In this document: piece by piece, positions 13 through 5,815 of the stretch | Layout of the letters: each line of letters begins with the position of its first letter | How positions within the stretch are numbered: the first letter of the stretch is position 1 | Source: a virus | Taxonomy: Duplodnaviria; Heunggongvirae; Uroviricota; Caudoviricetes | Length of the DNA: 8,996 nt | IMG/VR virus record: IMGVR_UViG_2579778899_000011 | Location: 1 to 8,996 of that record | Strand: one strand, 5' to 3' | Notes under the pieces: generated by a model | Told to the model about the DNA's origin: nothing | The model's database searches: none | Seen by the model: only the letters and a program-made list of their open reading frames with translations | Made by a program: the position numbers and the translations under genes

Positions 13-363
13 ATGCCATCACGAATCCCACGCGCCTGCCGTAAGCGTGGATGTGCAGGTACAACCACAGACAGTTCTGGTTACTGCGATAAACATCGTG
101 GCGAAGGATGGGTACAGCATCAACGCGGACTGAGCCGCCACCAGCGTGGCTATGGCTCGAAATGGGATGCCATACGTGCGCGCATACTGAAGCGTGATAA
201 TCATCTGTGTCAGAACTGCCTGCGCAATGGGAGAGCCGTTGAAGCCAGAACTGTGGACCACATCATTCCGAAAGCTCATGGTGGCACGGATGCAGACAGT
301 AACCTGCAGAGTCTGTGCTGGCCCTGTCATAAAGCAAAAACAGCGCGCGAACGCATCAATTGA
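13..363 (+). CDS. Phage HNH endonuclease of the type that sits next to cos and the terminase genes in HK97-like phages
   Basis: 116-aa ORF with ATG at 13 and a GGTGAG Shine-Dalgarno at 1-6. N-terminal Cys cluster (CRKRGCAG...GYCDKH) and the HNH core CQNCL...DHIIPKAHGG...N...LCWPCH. Position directly upstream of terS matches HK97-like packaging modules. Confidence 0.85.
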   Translation: MPSRIPRACRKRGCAGTTTDSSGYCDKHRGEGWVQHQRGLSRHQRGYGSKWDAIRARILKRDNHLCQNCLRNGRAVEARTVDHIIPKAHGGTDADSNLQSLCWPCHKAKTARERIN

Positions 364-510: not shown

Positions 511-993
511 ATGTCAGGACCTCCGAAAACCCCGCCACGCCTGCATTTGATACGAGGCAACCCCTCAAAGCGCCCCGTTAAAGACCCCAAAAAAACCGCT
601 AAAAAGGATGAAAAAGGTCTTCCTAAAATTCCGCAGCATTTAGGGGCACAGGGGAAGTACTGGTTCAGGCGAATGGCGGAAGAGCTGAATGCGGAAGGGA
701 TCATTTCTCAGCTTGATGCGCGTGCACTCGAGTTGCTGGTGGAAGCCTACACCGAATATCGGCATCACTGCGAAACACTAGATGTTGAGGGGTATACCTA
801 CCGCACGAAAACGCAGAGCGGTGATGTACTGATTAAGGCGCACCCCGCGGCGGCAATGAAAGCGGATGCCTGGAAGCGGATCCGGGCAATGCTTGCAGAG
901 TTTGGTATGTCACCGGCAAGCCGGGCTAAAGTAAATATCGCCGGACCGGATGATGTTGATCCGCTGGCGGAGCTTTTAAAAGCGAGAGACTGA
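511..993 (+). CDS. terS: Terminase small subunit, P27 family
   Basis: 160-aa ORF with a basic N-terminus (GNPSKRPVKDPKK) and the P27-family core YWFRRMAEEL...ARALELLVEAYTEY...GMSPASRAKV. Its stop overlaps the terL start (TGATG at 991-995), indicating translational coupling. Confidence 0.8.
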   Translation: MSGPPKTPPRLHLIRGNPSKRPVKDPKKTAKKDEKGLPKIPQHLGAQGKYWFRRMAEELNAEGIISQLDARALELLVEAYTEYRHHCETLDVEGYTYRTKTQSGDVLIKAHPAAAMKADAWKRIRAMLAEFGMSPASRAKVNIAGPDDVDPLAELLKARD

Positions 994-2186
994 TGGCAAA
1001 AGTGGCTGACGGGATCCGCTACGCCGAACGTGTTGTTGCAGGAGAAATTGTTGCTGGCGAATTTGTCCGCCTGGCCTGCCAGCGTTTTCTTGATGATCTG
1101 AAGTACGGCGAAGAGCGGGGGATTTATTTCAGTGAACCCCGTGCGCAGCACATCCTGAATTTCTACAAATTTGTGCCTCATGTAAAAGGGGCGCTGGCAG
1201 GCCAGCCCATTGAGTTGATGGACTGGCATGTATTTATCCTCATTAATATTTTTGGTTTTGTCATTCCGCTGGTCAATGAAGAGACCGGAGAAGTTGTCAT
1301 GCGCAGCGATGGCAGCGGACGTCCGGTGATGGTGCGCCGGTTCCGGACGGCGTACAACGAAGTCGCCCGTAAAAACGCAAAATCAACTCTGTCATCGGGT
1401 ATCGGCCTGTATATGACGGGGGCAGATGGTGAAGGCGGAGCTGAGGTGTATTCAGCCGCAACCACGCGTGACCAGGCCAGAATCGTGTTTGAAGACGCCA
1501 AAAATATGGTCAGAAAAGCCCGGTCGACACTCGGGCGGTTGTTTGATTTCAACAAGCTGGCGATTTACCAGGAGCAGAGCGCATCAAAATTTGAACCGCT
1601 TTCTTCGGATGCAAACAACCTGGATGGTCTGAACATCCACTGCGCCATTATTGATGAGCTGCATGCACATAAAACCCGTGACGTGTGGGACGTTCTGGAA
1701 ACGGCAACCGGTGCCCGTCTGCAGTCCCTTTTATTTGGTATCACCACGGCAGGGTTTAACAAGGAAGGGATTTGTTACGAGCAGCGTGATTACGCCATCA
1801 AGGTATTGCGTGGCTATAACAGCGACGTGGAGGGCGCTGTAAAAGACGACTCCTACTTTGCGATTATTTACACCCTCGATGAGGGAGATGATCCGTTTGA
1901 TGAAACGGTCTGGCAGAAAGCAAATCCCGGCCTGGGCATCTGTAAACGCTGGGATGATCTGCGTCGTCTGGCGAAAAAAGCGAAAGAACAGGTCTCTGCG
2001 CGGGTGAATTTTTTTACCAAGAAAGTAACATCACGCCGTAACAACAGTGCGACCTGTCCTGATTTTTTTAGTAACCAAATGAAAGAAAAAGATTTTTTCT
2101 TGTTCGTCGTTTTTGTTTTTTCTGGAAGGTTCTGGCTGTTTTCATCATTTGTGTATTGCACTGTGTATTGCAAAAACGGGTTATAA
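993..2186 (+). pseudogene. terL: Terminase large subunit, 5' ATPase portion only; protein-like sequence stops near 2020 and the ORF tail is AT-rich read-through
   Basis: Residues 1-~340 look like a phage large terminase ATPase domain, with a Walker-B-like IHCAIIDELH and a WQKANPGLG segment. After SARVNFFTKK (about 2004-2024) the frame reads TSRRNNSATCPDFF...FLFVVFVFSGRFWLF, which is low-complexity and not protein-like. Full-length large terminases in this family are about 500-600 aa, so the nuclease domain is absent. This length comparison is from memory, not computed. Confidence 0.7.
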
Positions 2187-2191
2187 ATCAC
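2020..2191. other. Probable left attachment junction (attL) of the inserted element: AT-rich spacer with a tandem 11-bp direct repeat just upstream of int
   Basis: Sharp change from terminase coding sequence to AT-rich sequence with T-runs. Tandem repeat tgtgtattgca at 2150-2160 and 2162-2172. The integrase ATG follows at 2192. Confidence 0.4.
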
Positions 2192-3400
2192 ATGGCTCTA
2201 AACAAACTGAGCGATAAAAAACTTCGTTCCCTGCTTGGGCGCAGGAGTGAGAGGCAGGAAACCATCGCTGATGGTAACGGGCTTTCGGTACGGGTCAGTA
2301 AATACGGATGTGTTAGTTTTGTTTTCTTTTACAGACTGGCGGGAAGGGGAACCGCGCCCATCTGGCTGACACTTGGAAAATATCCTGATCTGAGTCTCAA
2401 ATCAGCGAGAGAGATGCGCGATCAGTGTCGAACCTGGCTTGCGGAGGGCAGAGATCCACGGATTCAGATAAAAATTGAACGGGAAGCCACCTTGCAACCT
2501 GTTACCGTTCGTGAGGCACTTGAATACTGGCTTGATAATTATGCAATGGATAAGCGTAGGGGAGCAGAACATATCAGGCAGTGCTTTGGTAAACATATTT
2601 ATCCGGTGATTGGTCATGTACCACTTAGTGATTGCTCTATATCTATGTGGATCAAGTGTTTTGACAAAATAAAAAAAGTAGCACCTGTACAGGCCGGAGC
2701 TTTGTTGCGTATATCAAAACAGGCGCTTAAATTTTGTAGGGTAAGAAAATACGCGATTAGTCATGAAATTGATGATCTTGAGGTCTGTGATGTGGGAAAA
2801 AAGTCTGCGCGAAGAAGCAGGGTTTTAACAGATGATGAAATCAGAGATTTATGGCGAAGTATTAATACTGATTATGACAATCACGAATTATCATATGAAA
2901 ACCGAATTATTTTACGTTTCCTGGTAGTTTTTGGTTGTCGACTGTCAGAAGTATTACTGTCGTCCTGGGTAGAGTGGGATTTTGATAAGAAATTATGGCG
3001 CGTTCCCGCTGATCATAGCAAAAATGGCAGGGAAATAATCAGACCGATTCCTGATGGCATGTTTAACTGGTTAGTTACGTTAAAAAAAATAACAGGTAAC
3101 AAAGAAAATGTGATTGGGTTTGATATGCGTCAGTGTACGGCAAGCGTAACTATCGGTAAGACATGGAAAAGGATGAAACACTCGGAAAAATGGACGGCGC
3201 ATGATATGCGAAGAGTGTTTGCCACAAAGCTAAGTGATCATGGTTTTGAACATAATGTGGTTGAACAGTTGCTTGGGCACACATTAGGCGGTGTTGCCGG
3301 GGTTTATAACAGAAGTCAGTATATGGACAGAAAAAAAGAAGCTATGAACTGGTGGTACGACTATCTGAATAAGCTAATTAGTGGTGACGGTAATGATTGA
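2192..3400 (+). CDS. int: Tyrosine site-specific integrase, P4-like, with an N-terminal arm-type DNA-binding domain
   Basis: 402 aa from the ATG at 2192. N-terminus MALNKLSDKKLRSL...GLSVRVSKYG...F.FFYR is typical of P4-family integrase arm-binding domains. C-terminus carries the catalytic-core pattern ...RLSEVL...HDMRRVFATKL...LLGHTLGGVAGVYNRSQY. Confidence 0.9.
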   Translation: MALNKLSDKKLRSLLGRRSERQETIADGNGLSVRVSKYGCVSFVFFYRLAGRGTAPIWLTLGKYPDLSLKSAREMRDQCRTWLAEGRDPRIQIKIEREATLQPVTVREALEYWLDNYAMDKRRGAEHIRQCFGKHIYPVIGHVPLSDCSISMWIKCFDKIKKVAPVQAGALLRISKQALKFCRVRKYAISHEIDDLEVCDVGKKSARRSRVLTDDEIRDLWRSINTDYDNHELSYENRIILRFLVVFGCRLSEVLLSSWVEWDFDKKLWRVPADHSKNGREIIRPIPDGMFNWLVTLKKITGNKENVIGFDMRQCTASVTIGKTWKRMKHSEKWTAHDMRRVFATKLSDHGFEHNVVEQLLGHTLGGVAGVYNRSQYMDRKKEAMNWWYDYLNKLISGDGND

Positions 3401-3614
3401 AATAGTTACGCGTGAAGAACTTGAAAATGATAAAACAATCGACAGGATGATTAAGGAAGATGAATGTGCATGGTTAACAGCTCTTGGCCGGAGACACAGA
3501 GCATTACTTGAAAAGGAAGGAAAATTTCCACGGAAAATATGTATTGGCCCACAAACAAAAGTCTGGCGCTTATCTGAGGTGCTGGAATGGGTAAAGGGTG
3601 AATGGAAACCCTGA
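3393..3614 (+). CDS. alpA: AlpA-family phage transcriptional regulator/excisionase-like HTH protein (copy 1)
   Basis: Small ORF whose start overlaps the int stop. Carries the AlpA-type motif ...LGRRHRALLEKEGKFPRKICIGPQTKVWRLSEVLEWV. An alternative start exists at 3447. Confidence 0.65.
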   Translation: MIEIVTREELENDKTIDRMIKEDECAWLTALGRRHRALLEKEGKFPRKICIGPQTKVWRLSEVLEWVKGEWKP

Positions 3615-3637: not shown

Positions 3638-3662
3638 AACCCGTCTTTTGGCGGGTTTTTTT
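3638..3662 (+). terminator. Rho-independent terminator after alpA copy 1
   Basis: Hairpin aacccg-tcttttgg-cgggtt followed by a run of 7 T, seen directly in the sequence. Confidence 0.55.
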
Positions 3663-3677
3663 ATAGGTGATATTTTT

Positions 3678-3956
3678 ATGCAAAAATTTATTTATCCTAC
3701 ACCCGAAGAACGCATTCAGATTCTGAAAGAACATGGCGAACCGTATGATCGCCGTATACGCGAACATGAGTGTGCCAATCGTACCGGGCTTTCAAGAAGC
3801 AGACGTTGGGTACTTGAACAGGAGGGAGCATTTCCTGCTCGTGCTCATTTAGGGAAAGTGTCTGTTTCCTGGTTGCTCTCTGATGTGCTCTGGTGGGTTA
3901 TGCATCCGCCAGGAGTAAAGGAAGTAAACAGCCCATACAAAAACGCCAATAAGTAA
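3678..3956 (+). CDS. Second AlpA-like HTH regulator, a paralog of the upstream copy
   Basis: ATG at 3678 with an AGGTGA Shine-Dalgarno at 3665-3670. The track's TTG start at 3648 lies inside the upstream terminator and is rejected. Motif HECANRTGLSRSRRWVLEQEGAFPARAHLGKVSVSWLLSDVLWWV parallels copy 1. Confidence 0.6.
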   Translation: MQKFIYPTPEERIQILKEHGEPYDRRIREHECANRTGLSRSRRWVLEQEGAFPARAHLGKVSVSWLLSDVLWWVMHPPGVKEVNSPYKNANK

Positions 3957-4607: not shown

Positions 4608-4890
4608 CCGCGTACGGTGCTGATTATACGGTACATCGTGTTAACCGGGAAGTTACCCACCAGCAAGGCAAAATCTTCTGCTAAAAAATGACATATGGCC
4701 AGTCGTCCGGAAAGCATGAAATTTTACAAAAATGGAAAATGAAGATTTTTATTGTGCTGGTGGGTAAAAACAAAAAGCGCCCCGTTACCGGAGCGCCCTT
4801 GCGAACAATTAACCTACTGCGCAAAAAATGAATCTGTGCGGGGGGATTATATCAACCGTGGTCGAAATGACCATAGTTGCAGGATAACAG

Positions 4891-4920
4891 GCAAAACAAA
4901 GGCCACCCGCTACGGTGGCC
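4891..4920 (-). terminator. Rho-independent terminator for leftward transcription
   Basis: Perfect 7-bp stem ggccacc/ggtggcc (4901-4920) around a 6-nt loop. On the minus strand it is followed by a U-rich tract (plus-strand caaaacaaa at 4892-4900). Confidence 0.5.
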
Positions 4921-4998
4921 CCTCGACACAAGCACACGTTATCCCCAACGCATGAGCATAACCAACAATGCCACATTTACGGCTGGTGGGCAATGTGA

Positions 4999-5172
4999 TC
5001 AGTCAGATTTGGTTCGTTCCAAGGTTTGCAACGAGAGCTTTTTCCTGTGCTCTTTAAGGAATTTCTCAAGAGCAAAAGCACATGGCGCGAATCTTTCTGA
5101 TTCATGCTCTATCTTTCTGCGCCGTCTTTTCCGTGCCGGTGATAATGTTTTGGTCAATTCTTTATCGGTCAT
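4999..5172 (-). CDS. Hypothetical small, highly basic protein downstream of the RHH-like gene; may be non-coding
   Basis: ORF in the six-frame track (4999-5187). An internal ATG at 5172 has an AGGA-like Shine-Dalgarno. Contains RKRRRRK. No recognisable family. Confidence 0.2.
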   Translation of the reverse strand: MTDKELTKTLSPARKRRRRKIEHESERFAPCAFALEKFLKEHRKKLSLQTLERTKSD

Positions 5173-5229
5173 TGTGTTGTCCTGCATAGCAATGCGCCGT
5201 AGTTACTCACACCACGGCGCTGGTGATGG

Positions 5230-5409
5230 TTACTCCTGCTCTTTGGCCTTGCGACGCTGGCGGTACTCAACTTCTCGCTTTAATGCTGCTGTTACAAACT
5301 GCCCTGTACTTTCACCAGGCATTTTTACCGCCTCAACATTGTTCATAACTTCATGCGGAACCCTTGCCGCAACTGTTTGTGATTTTGCGTTTACTGCTTT
5401 TGTCGCCAT
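5230..5409 (-). CDS. Small ribbon-helix-helix-like DNA-binding protein, candidate repressor of the divergent switch
   Basis: 59-aa ORF translated by hand from the minus strand: MATKAVNAKSQTVAARVPHEVMNNVEAVKMPGESTGQFVTAALKREVEYRQRRKAKEQE. GAGGGG Shine-Dalgarno about 8 nt upstream of the ATG. Not in the supplied track because it is under the length cut-off. The RHH assignment rests on a beta-strand/helix/helix pattern judged by eye. Confidence 0.4.
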   Translation of the reverse strand: MATKAVNAKSQTVAARVPHEVMNNVEAVKMPGESTGQFVTAALKREVEYRQRRKAKEQE

Positions 5410-5459
5410 GTTGTGTACCCCTCACAAAAAACAAATGCAGTATGCAGGAAAAAAAATAA

Positions 5460-5511
5460 GTGTTCAACACTTGACGTGTTTAACACCTGGGTTTAAATTG
5501 GTGTTCAACAC
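5460..5511. promoter_or_regulatory. Divergent promoter/operator region with three copies of an 11-bp palindrome
   Basis: gtgttcaacac at 5460-5470, gtgtttaacac at 5476-5486, gtgttcaacac at 5501-5511. Each is a GTGTT/AACAC inverted repeat. A -35-like ttgacg (5471-5476) and a -10-like taaatt (5494-5499) 17 bp apart sit between and over the operators, pointing rightward toward the operon starting at 5609. Confidence 0.5.
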
Positions 5512-5608
5512 CTTATTAATGCAAGGTGCAGAAACGACGAAACCCGGCAGTGCGCGAACACTAACCGGGCTTCTAACCACCAACGATAGCAAGCGTATCG
5601 AGGTAGCT

Positions 5609-5815
5609 ATGAGAAATCATACCACACACCCGCAAGGGCGGGACTCGCACAACCTGAATAAATACATCTGGCGTTTTATCGCCCTGAGTACGGCACAACC
5701 GCGCGTAATTCACATCGAGGCCACCAGCGAACAGGAAGCACGCCAGCAATCTCCTGATGGCTGCGTGATGGTATTCGCCGCCCGTATTCGTCAGGAGGTG
5801 AGCCATGTGCAATAA
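5609..5815 (+). CDS. Small protein resembling the Icd-like (host cell division inhibitor) family of P4-like elements
   Basis: 68 aa, MRNHTTHPQGRDSHNLNKYIWRFIALSTAQPRVIHIEATSEQEARQQ..., with GAGG just upstream of the ATG. The family assignment is from memory of annotations in P4-like islands, not from a search. Confidence 0.4.
   Translation: MRNHTTHPQGRDSHNLNKYIWRFIALSTAQPRVIHIEATSEQEARQQSPDGCVMVFAARIRQEVSHVQ

Follow-up and report, generated by a model that had tools for sequence, protein, structure and literature searches.

The window, by which we mean the whole 8,996-nucleotide stretch of viral DNA that was analysed, opens with late genes of a prophage, the last of which (terL) is cut short, and continues with an integrase gene (int), two alpA genes and further genes of a second element (Table 1). 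The N-terminus of the integrase (Int) matches the Arm-DNA-bind_3 family (PF13356, E=1e-17), and the columns consistent with the catalytic residues R/K/H/R/H/Y are invariant in our alignment of integrases (alignment A3). The start codon of int, ATG at 2192-2194, is kept in homologues, which begin MA.NKLSD. Behind the alpA genes the window contains a Bro-N protein, a DUF4222 protein and a DUF927 primase, as assigned with Pfam. The HNH endonuclease gene, terS, the truncated terL (terL') and int are all on the plus strand, so that the element is co-oriented with the prophage late gene that it interrupts.

Table 1. Features of the prophage terL junction and of its surroundings. Positions are those of the window; a slash marks the crossover.
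Feature	Position	Strand	Basis or remark
HNH endonuclease gene	13-363	+	Upstream of the region studied
terS, P27-type	511-993	+	Upstream of the region studied
terL 5' fragment of the helper prophage	993-2020	+	Codons 1 to ~342; Pfam TerL_ATPase and partial TerL_nuclease
attL core TTACCAA	2014-2020	+	attB/attL/attR alignments; equals the published 'ttaccaa' block
P' arm spacer, core to doubled motif	2021-2149	+	T-rich; matches the published attL sequences of the group
Imperfect IHF-like site TAACCAAATGAAA (YAANNNNTTGATW)	2071-2083	+	Putative; 7 of 9 specified positions; about midway from core to motif
Half-site 1 of the doubled motif, TGTGTATTGCA	2150-2160	+	Putative arm-type integrase binding site; invariant in alignment A4
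Half-site 2 of the doubled motif, TGTGTATTGCA	2162-2172	+	12 bp after half-site 1; putative, on the same basis
TAA stop of the truncated terL frame	2184-2186	+	ORF 993-2186; 55 element-derived codons; 5 nt before the int ATG
int, tyrosine integrase, probably of the HE-PICI clade	2192-3400	+	PF13356, residues 6-92; PF00589, residues 211-377
alpA paralogue 1	3381-3614	+	PF05930, E=2.5e-9; candidate excisionase or regulator, rival binder of the motif
alpA paralogue 2	3648-3956	+	PF05930, E=7e-10; start annotated at 3676/3680 in relatives
attB crossover			GGGTGAATTTTTTTACCAA/ACACATGAATG
attL crossover (window)			...TTTTTTTACCAA/GAAAGTAACATC
attR crossover (L001)			CTTGAAATATTCTTACCAA/ACACATG

The rest of the element can be followed in an E. 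coli locus of 33 kb (NZ_CP016546, called L001 here), whose element is 98% identical to that of the window. Its later genes encode an SSB, PerC, a major capsid protein, a prohead protease, a portal protein, a head-closure protein, connectors, an HNH protein, TerS and TerL, and no tail genes are present in the annotation of the L001 element. About 15.4 kb past the break, the 3' part of the interrupted terL resumes, followed by the portal, protease and capsid genes of the prophage. Four zones are present in all: integration (int and alpA), Bro and replication (primase) in the window, and a late zone that is read from L001. Given the gene content on either side and the arrangement in L001, we read the window as the left junction of a satellite that carries capsid genes and sits inside a prophage terL. 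Helper-embedded phage-inducible chromosomal islands (HE-PICIs) have been described that occupy 14 sites in the late genes of prophages (Tommasini, Mageeney & Williams 2023, NAR Genom Bioinform 5:lqad036, PMC10111431). We believe that the segment 2004-2191 is probably the attL junction of such an HE-PICI, ~15.4 kb long and with its own capsid and packaging genes, in the terL of an HK97/P27-type prophage, with an intasome built on arm sites and an int gene expressed by read-through.

A reading of the DNA from its letters only (the sequence-only reading) had proposed this segment as a candidate attL, and the order of parts found here agrees with it, as the crossover core at 2014-2020 is followed by the element-side arm and then by int. 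TTACCAA is the 7-bp block that attB, attL and attR have in common in our alignments, in which attR was taken from L001; it falls at about codon 343 of terL, and the sequence from 2021 on belongs to the element. Aligning an uninterrupted terL had been suggested as the way to find the breakpoint, and the intact alleles L002 and L003 (585 aa) place it in this block: they are identical to the window up to 2020, and they match L001 from its core onwards, on the attR side. Aligned in this way, the alleles show strand exchange to fall within TTACCAA, and all sequence to the right of this core to be the P' arm of the element. Some alleles have TCACGAA or TTACAAA as the core, with the difference at the Thr wobble position. 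In the interrupted protein, Pfam matches the ATPase domain but no more than the first 68 positions of the nuclease domain, and in relatives PGAP calls the interrupted terL a pseudogene. The uninterrupted form of the same terL is carried by many E. coli genomes.

The crossover within terL had also been expected to define a new integration target, and here the expectation failed. The terL site is not new, because the site group A:Terminase_1:246, known from E. coli and E. albertii, has already been published with the att identity block 'ttaccaa', and window positions 2000-2120 equal the published attL entries of that group (PMC10111431 supplement). We also considered the satellite's own terL as a carrier of attB and rejected it; its product is 32% identical to the helper TerL and has LTKRFNIW where the helper has FTKHMNVW. 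On this comparison, self-targeting of the satellite's own terL is unlikely.

Upstream of int, TGTGTATTGCA is present as two exact 11-mers with 1 nt (C) between them. The tandem repeat had been described as having 11-bp units; both copies of the unit are exact, but because of the intervening nucleotide the period of the repeat is 12 bp, not 11. Its distance from the int ATG, put at about 20 bp in the sequence-only reading, measures 19 nt. The junction had been called T-rich and AT-rich, and a composition count of the segment 2021-2191 gives just that, with 64% A+T and 37% T. In first-order Markov simulations of the whole window (n=2000), an exact 11-mer tandem with a period of 11-20 arose 37 times, corresponding to p ~0.02 from the window alone, and the count of the 9-mer with at most one mismatch, 2 seen against 2.5 expected, is unremarkable alone. 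A scan of the window with Rfam returned no family at the gathering score. Decisive support for the repeat comes from comparison with sequences outside the window, namely from the twin pairs in L001 and from the invariance across integrases described below.

The exact 9-mer GTGTATTGC has only four copies in the 33 kb of L001, all on the plus strand, and these form two pairs, one per arm, both with a spacing of 12 bp. The copies in the other arm are at L001 29367 and 29379, ~80-100 bp left of the attR core. Measured to the core centre, this P-arm motif is 78 bp away from its end and 100 bp away from its start, and from its end to the last base of the core it is 81 bp. In the P' arm of the window, the distance from the core centre (2017) to the start of the doubled motif is 133 bp. 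A doubled motif, tgTGTATTGCantgTGTATTGCa, has been reported in both attP arms of HE-PICIs, at ~81±2 bp upstream and 132±2 bp downstream of the attP centre (PMC10111431). Our P' distance of 133 bp stands against the published 132±2 bp, and our P-arm distance agrees with the published 81±2 bp within ~3 bp, the text of the paper giving no reference points. At least six further IMG/VR loci of A:Terminase_1:246 have the same attR arrangement. The window ends before the right end of its own element, and attR and the P arm were read in relatives that are 98-100% identical. Comparison with the other end of the element, which had been proposed as a check, found a matching core and a matching doubled motif there, in L001 and in the further loci of the group.

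We searched the viral contigs of IMG/VR for a doubled TGTATTGC and obtained 137 matches, 46 of which have an Int homologue (45-100% identity to the Int of the window) ~30-90 bp downstream. With a control pattern of equal complexity, two copies of the Shewanella-type variant TGTGTAGC, none of the 148 matches in viral contigs adjoins an Int homologue. In IMG/VR, integrases that adjoin the same attL are 100% identical to the Int of the window; for the other motif-carrying integrases the identity is 48-71%. We also drew a sample that was blind to the motif, with loci from one genome per species, picked by integrase similarity only. The motif, matched at 15 or more of its 16 positions, is present at 14 of the 17 loci with an Int at least 48% identical, where it starts 40-75 bp upstream of the int match, and these carriers belong to Xenorhabdus, Arsenophonus, Rahnella, Kosakonia, Cedecea, Kluyvera and Erwinia. 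At the loci with a more distant Int, none (0/25) exceeds the motif background of the same loci. Columns in the alignment of the regions upstream of int are on average 56% identical, and the two half-sites form its only invariant block; the doubled motif is unchanged even where the integrase is no more than 48-71% identical to that of the window. Variant repeats (TGTGTAGC, TGTATCAA and GTrTAAA), each specific to a lineage, are found in PICIs at the fis site and in other PICIs. The motif has been stated to be unique to HE-PICIs (PMC10111431), and the variants in fis-site PICIs contrast with this statement.

Between the core and the doubled motif, the P' arm contains T-tracts at 2061-2069, 2091-2098 and 2108-2121, and GATTTTTT occurs twice in this spacer, 30 bp apart. 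The sequence-only reading had regarded the segment as typical of IHF-bound att arms. For the arm in the window this stands only in part, as the site found there is an imperfect one and the strict IHF consensus has no match in this arm. In the other arm the strict consensus is present (TATCAATCAGTTA, minus strand, L001 29419-29431), between the P-arm motif and the core; the reconstructed attP has no other strict match, and every attR copy of the group keeps this one, even a diverged, Arsenophonus-like copy. The imperfect site in the P' arm is flanked by T-tracts and lies in a partly conserved block of the motif-blind alignment, and several relatives match TTGATW there at 5-6 of 6 positions.

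Published candidates for the protein that binds the motif are the arm domains of Int, AlpA or some other protein (PMC10111431). Among loci at which the middle and catalytic parts of Int are 42-48% identical to those of the window, the N-domain of Int (residues 4-92) reaches 64-75% identity in motif carriers, against 43-57% in non-carriers. The 12-bp-period doubled site appears to be general to this integrase clade and to co-evolve with the Int N-domain. Similarity of AlpA shows no such relation: L137 has an AlpA that is 68% identical to that of the window, as close as in the nearest carriers, yet its repeat is GTrTAAA, while in the motif carriers L133-L149 AlpA is just 44-51% identical. Since the motif tracks the N-domain of Int and not AlpA similarity, the comparison favours the Int arm domain over AlpA as the reader of the motif, although it is correlative and the discordance of AlpA comes from one or two loci (L137 and L140). 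The earlier suggestion of arm-type integrase sites in this place has gained from the twin motif in the other arm, from the conservation across diverged integrases and from the PF13356 domain at the N-terminus of Int, and the sites remain putative.

An AlpA-type protein might bind the doubled motif in place of Int, in which case the repeat would be a directionality or activator site. Winged-helix excisionase-type proteins typically bind tandem direct repeats, and two alpA paralogues lie directly downstream of int, both of which would suit this possibility. AlpA was also named as an alternative in PMC10111431, but we hold it to be an improbable binder, because the doubled motif is in both arms, whereas directionality factors normally mark one arm, because the presence of the motif is independent of AlpA similarity at the loci just described, and because no AlpA homologue could be detected in the 1.5 kb behind int in those relatives from Shewanella and Photobacterium whose repeats are variants. 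The chance that the tandem repeat is only a coincidence, or a neutral duplication without function, is negligible. The window by itself would leave some room for it, given the p value of ~0.02 and a 9-mer count at expectation, but the comparative data refute it: there is an exact twin pair in the other arm, in seven genera or more the repeat stays invariant beside integrases of 48-71% identity while its flanks diverge, and its position is fixed relative to both int and the core.

With Int as the preferred reader, the four half-sites would be arm-type sites, read by an integrase tetramer through the Arm-DNA-bind_3 domain at the N-terminus of each of its four subunits. The DNA between core and arm sites would be bent, in the P arm at the strict IHF consensus and in the P' arm at the imperfect IHF-like site and the T-tracts; the arms could in this way fold back onto the core and give a lambda-like intasome, which would serve both integration and excision. 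In a lambda-type attP, a heterobivalent tyrosine integrase assisted by IHF reads arm-type sites. The likeness to it consists of an N-terminal arm-binding domain in Int, a repeated non-core motif that each arm carries as adjacent direct repeats, putative IHF-type sites located between core and arm motif (the P' one imperfect, at 7/9), and a crossover block of 7 bp, the size expected of a lambda-type overlap region. The arm sites of lambda are arranged 2+3. Here the sites are 2+2 with another motif sequence, and the arm domain is PF13356, of the P4/DUF4102 type and not that of lambda Int, with binding that is putative here.

In a consensus scan, no sigma-70-like site of at least 9/12 was found in 1900-2400, and no intrinsic terminator is predicted in this interval, i.e. 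between terL' and int. A relaxed hexamer scan gave 8/12 for the best candidates, with spacers of 19 bp, and one of these candidates has its -10-like TGTATT (2164-2169) inside half-site 2. The sequence-only reading had offered an autoregulated int promoter as another role for the region, and because these scans reached 8/12 at best, the sequence provides no support for this proposal. A weak or activator-dependent promoter may still be present in attL. A promoter of its own is not required for int, because int is contiguous and co-oriented with the late gene and no terminator is predicted between them; because it is co-oriented and contiguous with terL', read-through is also the most economical source of int mRNA. 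Based on gene orientation and on the absence of predicted promoters and terminators, we infer that helper late transcription most likely continues from terL' into int and so expresses it. Such read-through out of the late operon of the helper has already been hypothesised (PMC10111431).

In the attL of KplE1 (CPS-53), the site of the IntS/TorI system, arm sites and the int promoter overlap, and the integrase represses its own gene (Panis et al. 2010, PMC2951348), and the same autoregulation is reported in that paper for Int and Vis of P4. By analogy with KplE1 IntS and P4 Int, the repeat in the window could be mainly the operator of an int promoter embedded in attL and act in negative autoregulation, although we consider this unlikely. 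As in KplE1, int adjoins attL, reads away from the core and has putative arm sites just upstream of its start codon, which is the layout for which autoregulation has been demonstrated, and the -10-like hexamer of the best weak candidate falls in half-site 2. Unlike in KplE1, no promoter is detectable in the attL of the window with either the consensus or the relaxed scan, the 19-bp spacers of the 8/12 candidates are non-optimal, and just 19 bp lie between the motif and the ATG. Moreover, int is contiguous with the helper late gene with no terminator predicted between them, and transcription can enter from outside because int is downstream of that gene and co-oriented with it. An operator role is compatible with a role as arm sites; under read-through, which we prefer, Int could also lower the expression of its own gene by binding 19 bp ahead of the start codon.

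Compared with the published HE-PICI group A:Terminase_1:246, the element has the same insertion in prophage terL, the same orientation, the same ttaccaa block and the same attL sequence, as well as the same tgTGTATTGCantgTGTATTGCa motif in both arms at the same distances and the same zone order of int-alpA, Bro, primase and late genes. Nothing essential differs between them. The repeat, its spacing and the terL insertion site were all published in 2023 and are already known, and because the motif, its geometry and the site have been in the literature since then, the window adds one more instance only. The covariation with the N-domain, the variant repeats at the fis site, the IHF-like sites and the open terL' frame abutting int are absent from PMC10111431. 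The capsid-forming PICIs (cf-PICIs; Alqurainy et al., bioRxiv 10.1101/2022.09.08.507074) resemble the element, as read in its relative L001, in that capsid and packaging genes without tail genes come after int-alpA-primase. However, the paper on cf-PICIs requires attachment sites 'never occupied by prophages' and lists six chromosomal attB sites (10.1101/2022.09.08.507074), whereas the element described here is inside a prophage terL, and its late module is outside the window.

The junction marks how a satellite embeds itself in the packaging gene of its helper and disables this gene until excision. The four conserved half-sites are a likely scaffold of the recombination machine that times excision. 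For genome annotation, the motif is a practical signature with which to find and delimit satellites that annotation pipelines tend to miscall. The comparative data also bear on the question of the binder raised in PMC10111431, where they lean towards the arm domain of the integrase.

The frame of terL' is open throughout the 171-nt arm, doubled motif included, up to its TAA, whereas in composition-matched shuffles it stays open in 2.1% of trials. Among the attL alleles of the group (n=10), eight stop like the window and two, L001 and L325, are in frame with int and give a continuous terL'-int ORF of 807 codons. These two have independent +1 changes in the T-tract at 2092-2097, where homopolymer sequencing errors are possible; NZ_CP016546 and NZ_OZ501612 are examples of records with the +1 allele. 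The int ATG is without a good Shine-Dalgarno sequence in this group, unlike in the other site groups. We regard it as doubtful that, in the terL:246 group, Int synthesis is coupled in cis to the translation of terL', with the slippery T-tract switching between coupled and fused forms; if it were true, excision would be a direct read-out of helper late-gene translation. The open frame was rejected as a general trait of HE-PICIs. At the remaining site groups, the frame of the interrupted gene already closes 106-148 nt upstream of the int ATG, so that any coupling would be specific to the terL:246 group at most, and because the arm is nearly invariant within E. coli, the alleles provide little power to detect selection. 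Within the 807-codon ORF, PGAP names a 470-aa 'integrase'. PGAP merges int with the terL pseudogene, or lets the two overlap, in two relatives.

Five Shewanella loci (L139, L141, L142, L144, L147) and one Photobacterium locus (L146) carry Int relatives at 43-48% identity, and in these loci the 3' end of fis adjoins int, the sequence …TTAGTTCATGCCGTA being the reverse complement of YGMN-stop. The Shewanella loci have a variant doubled repeat, GTGTGTAGCAcgGTGTGTAGCA, with the same 12-bp period as the motif in the window and in three copies in L142, and the Photobacterium locus has another, GTGTATCAAttTGTGTATCAA, likewise with a 12-bp period. Pairs of the GTrTAAA type are found in two further relatives (L137 and L140). 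The fis PICIs are said to be without the doubled motif (PMC10111431). Judged by sequence in the int-side arm, the doubled-repeat architecture looks to be shared, with a repeat sequence that is specific to each lineage.

In some site groups (L043, L011, L030, L138), the doubled motif is followed 22-24 bp further downstream by a third copy, TGTGTATTGCA (or TGTGTATTGTA), which precedes int, and the distance from motif to ATG is 70-88 bp in these groups versus 33-45 bp otherwise. On the attR side, in the 98%-identical element of NZ_CP016546 (L001), a strict IHF consensus, TATCAATCAGTTA, lies on the minus strand in the stretch that separates the P-arm doubled motif from the core, and it is kept in every terL:246 attR copy seen, including the diverged Arsenophonus-like L072. 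The 7-bp core is variable at its own second base and at the wobble position of a terL Thr codon (TTACCAA, TCACGAA, TTACAAA); in published attL/attR pairs, the same core variant is present at both ends of one element (PMC10111431).

The frame of the 5' helper fragment, terL', is open across the entire attL arm in eight of ten alleles, with its stop 5 nt upstream of the int ATG. In the other two (two genomes), +1 changes in a T-tract join terL' in frame to int, giving 807 codons, and PGAP calls a 470-aa integrase. The open or fused frame could reflect coupled translation or a fusion protein, but neutral variation and sequencing error in the homopolymer are further possible causes.

Coordinates of features in the window and in other loci
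Feature	Window	Other loci	Remark
7-bp core	2014-2020	equivalents in L323, L324, L328, L118	
Variant doubled repeat		~2930-2965 of locus (Shewanella, Photobacterium)	int about 40-70 bp downstream
terL' frame; int	993-2186; 2192-3400	L001 12994-15417; L325 982-3405	
T-tract	2092-2097		
IHF consensus		L001 29419-29431	outside window
Satellite terL		L001 27285-28946	
Helper terL		L002 1994-3751	intact
Iteron-like repeats		L001 29020-29180	element right end, outside window

Between 4608 and 5800 of the window there is no convincing plus-strand gene, and Rfam gives no RNA family in the window. A 312-aa TTG ORF at 4877-5815 looks spurious. Annotation of the equivalent region in relatives has a small YlcI/YnfO gene on the minus strand plus an ash/Icd-like gene; no other part varies as much from one E. 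coli relative to another, and one relative has an IS1414 insertion there.

The satellite's own terL has just 32% identity to the terL of the helper, the gene that the satellite interrupts, and the attB-equivalent position differs (LTKRFNIW in the satellite, FTKHMNVW in the helper). The satellite packaging genes are intact while the helper terL is interrupted; the satellite sits in the helper terL and has its own, and therefore the helper is unable to package until the satellite excises. Between the satellite's terL, just upstream, and the attR arm we observed repeats that resemble iterons: GCGGGTTAT(T/C) occurs three times in direct orientation and is followed by ATAACCCGC/CTAACCCGC, also three times but inverted. 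These repeats may serve as an origin or have a role in packaging.
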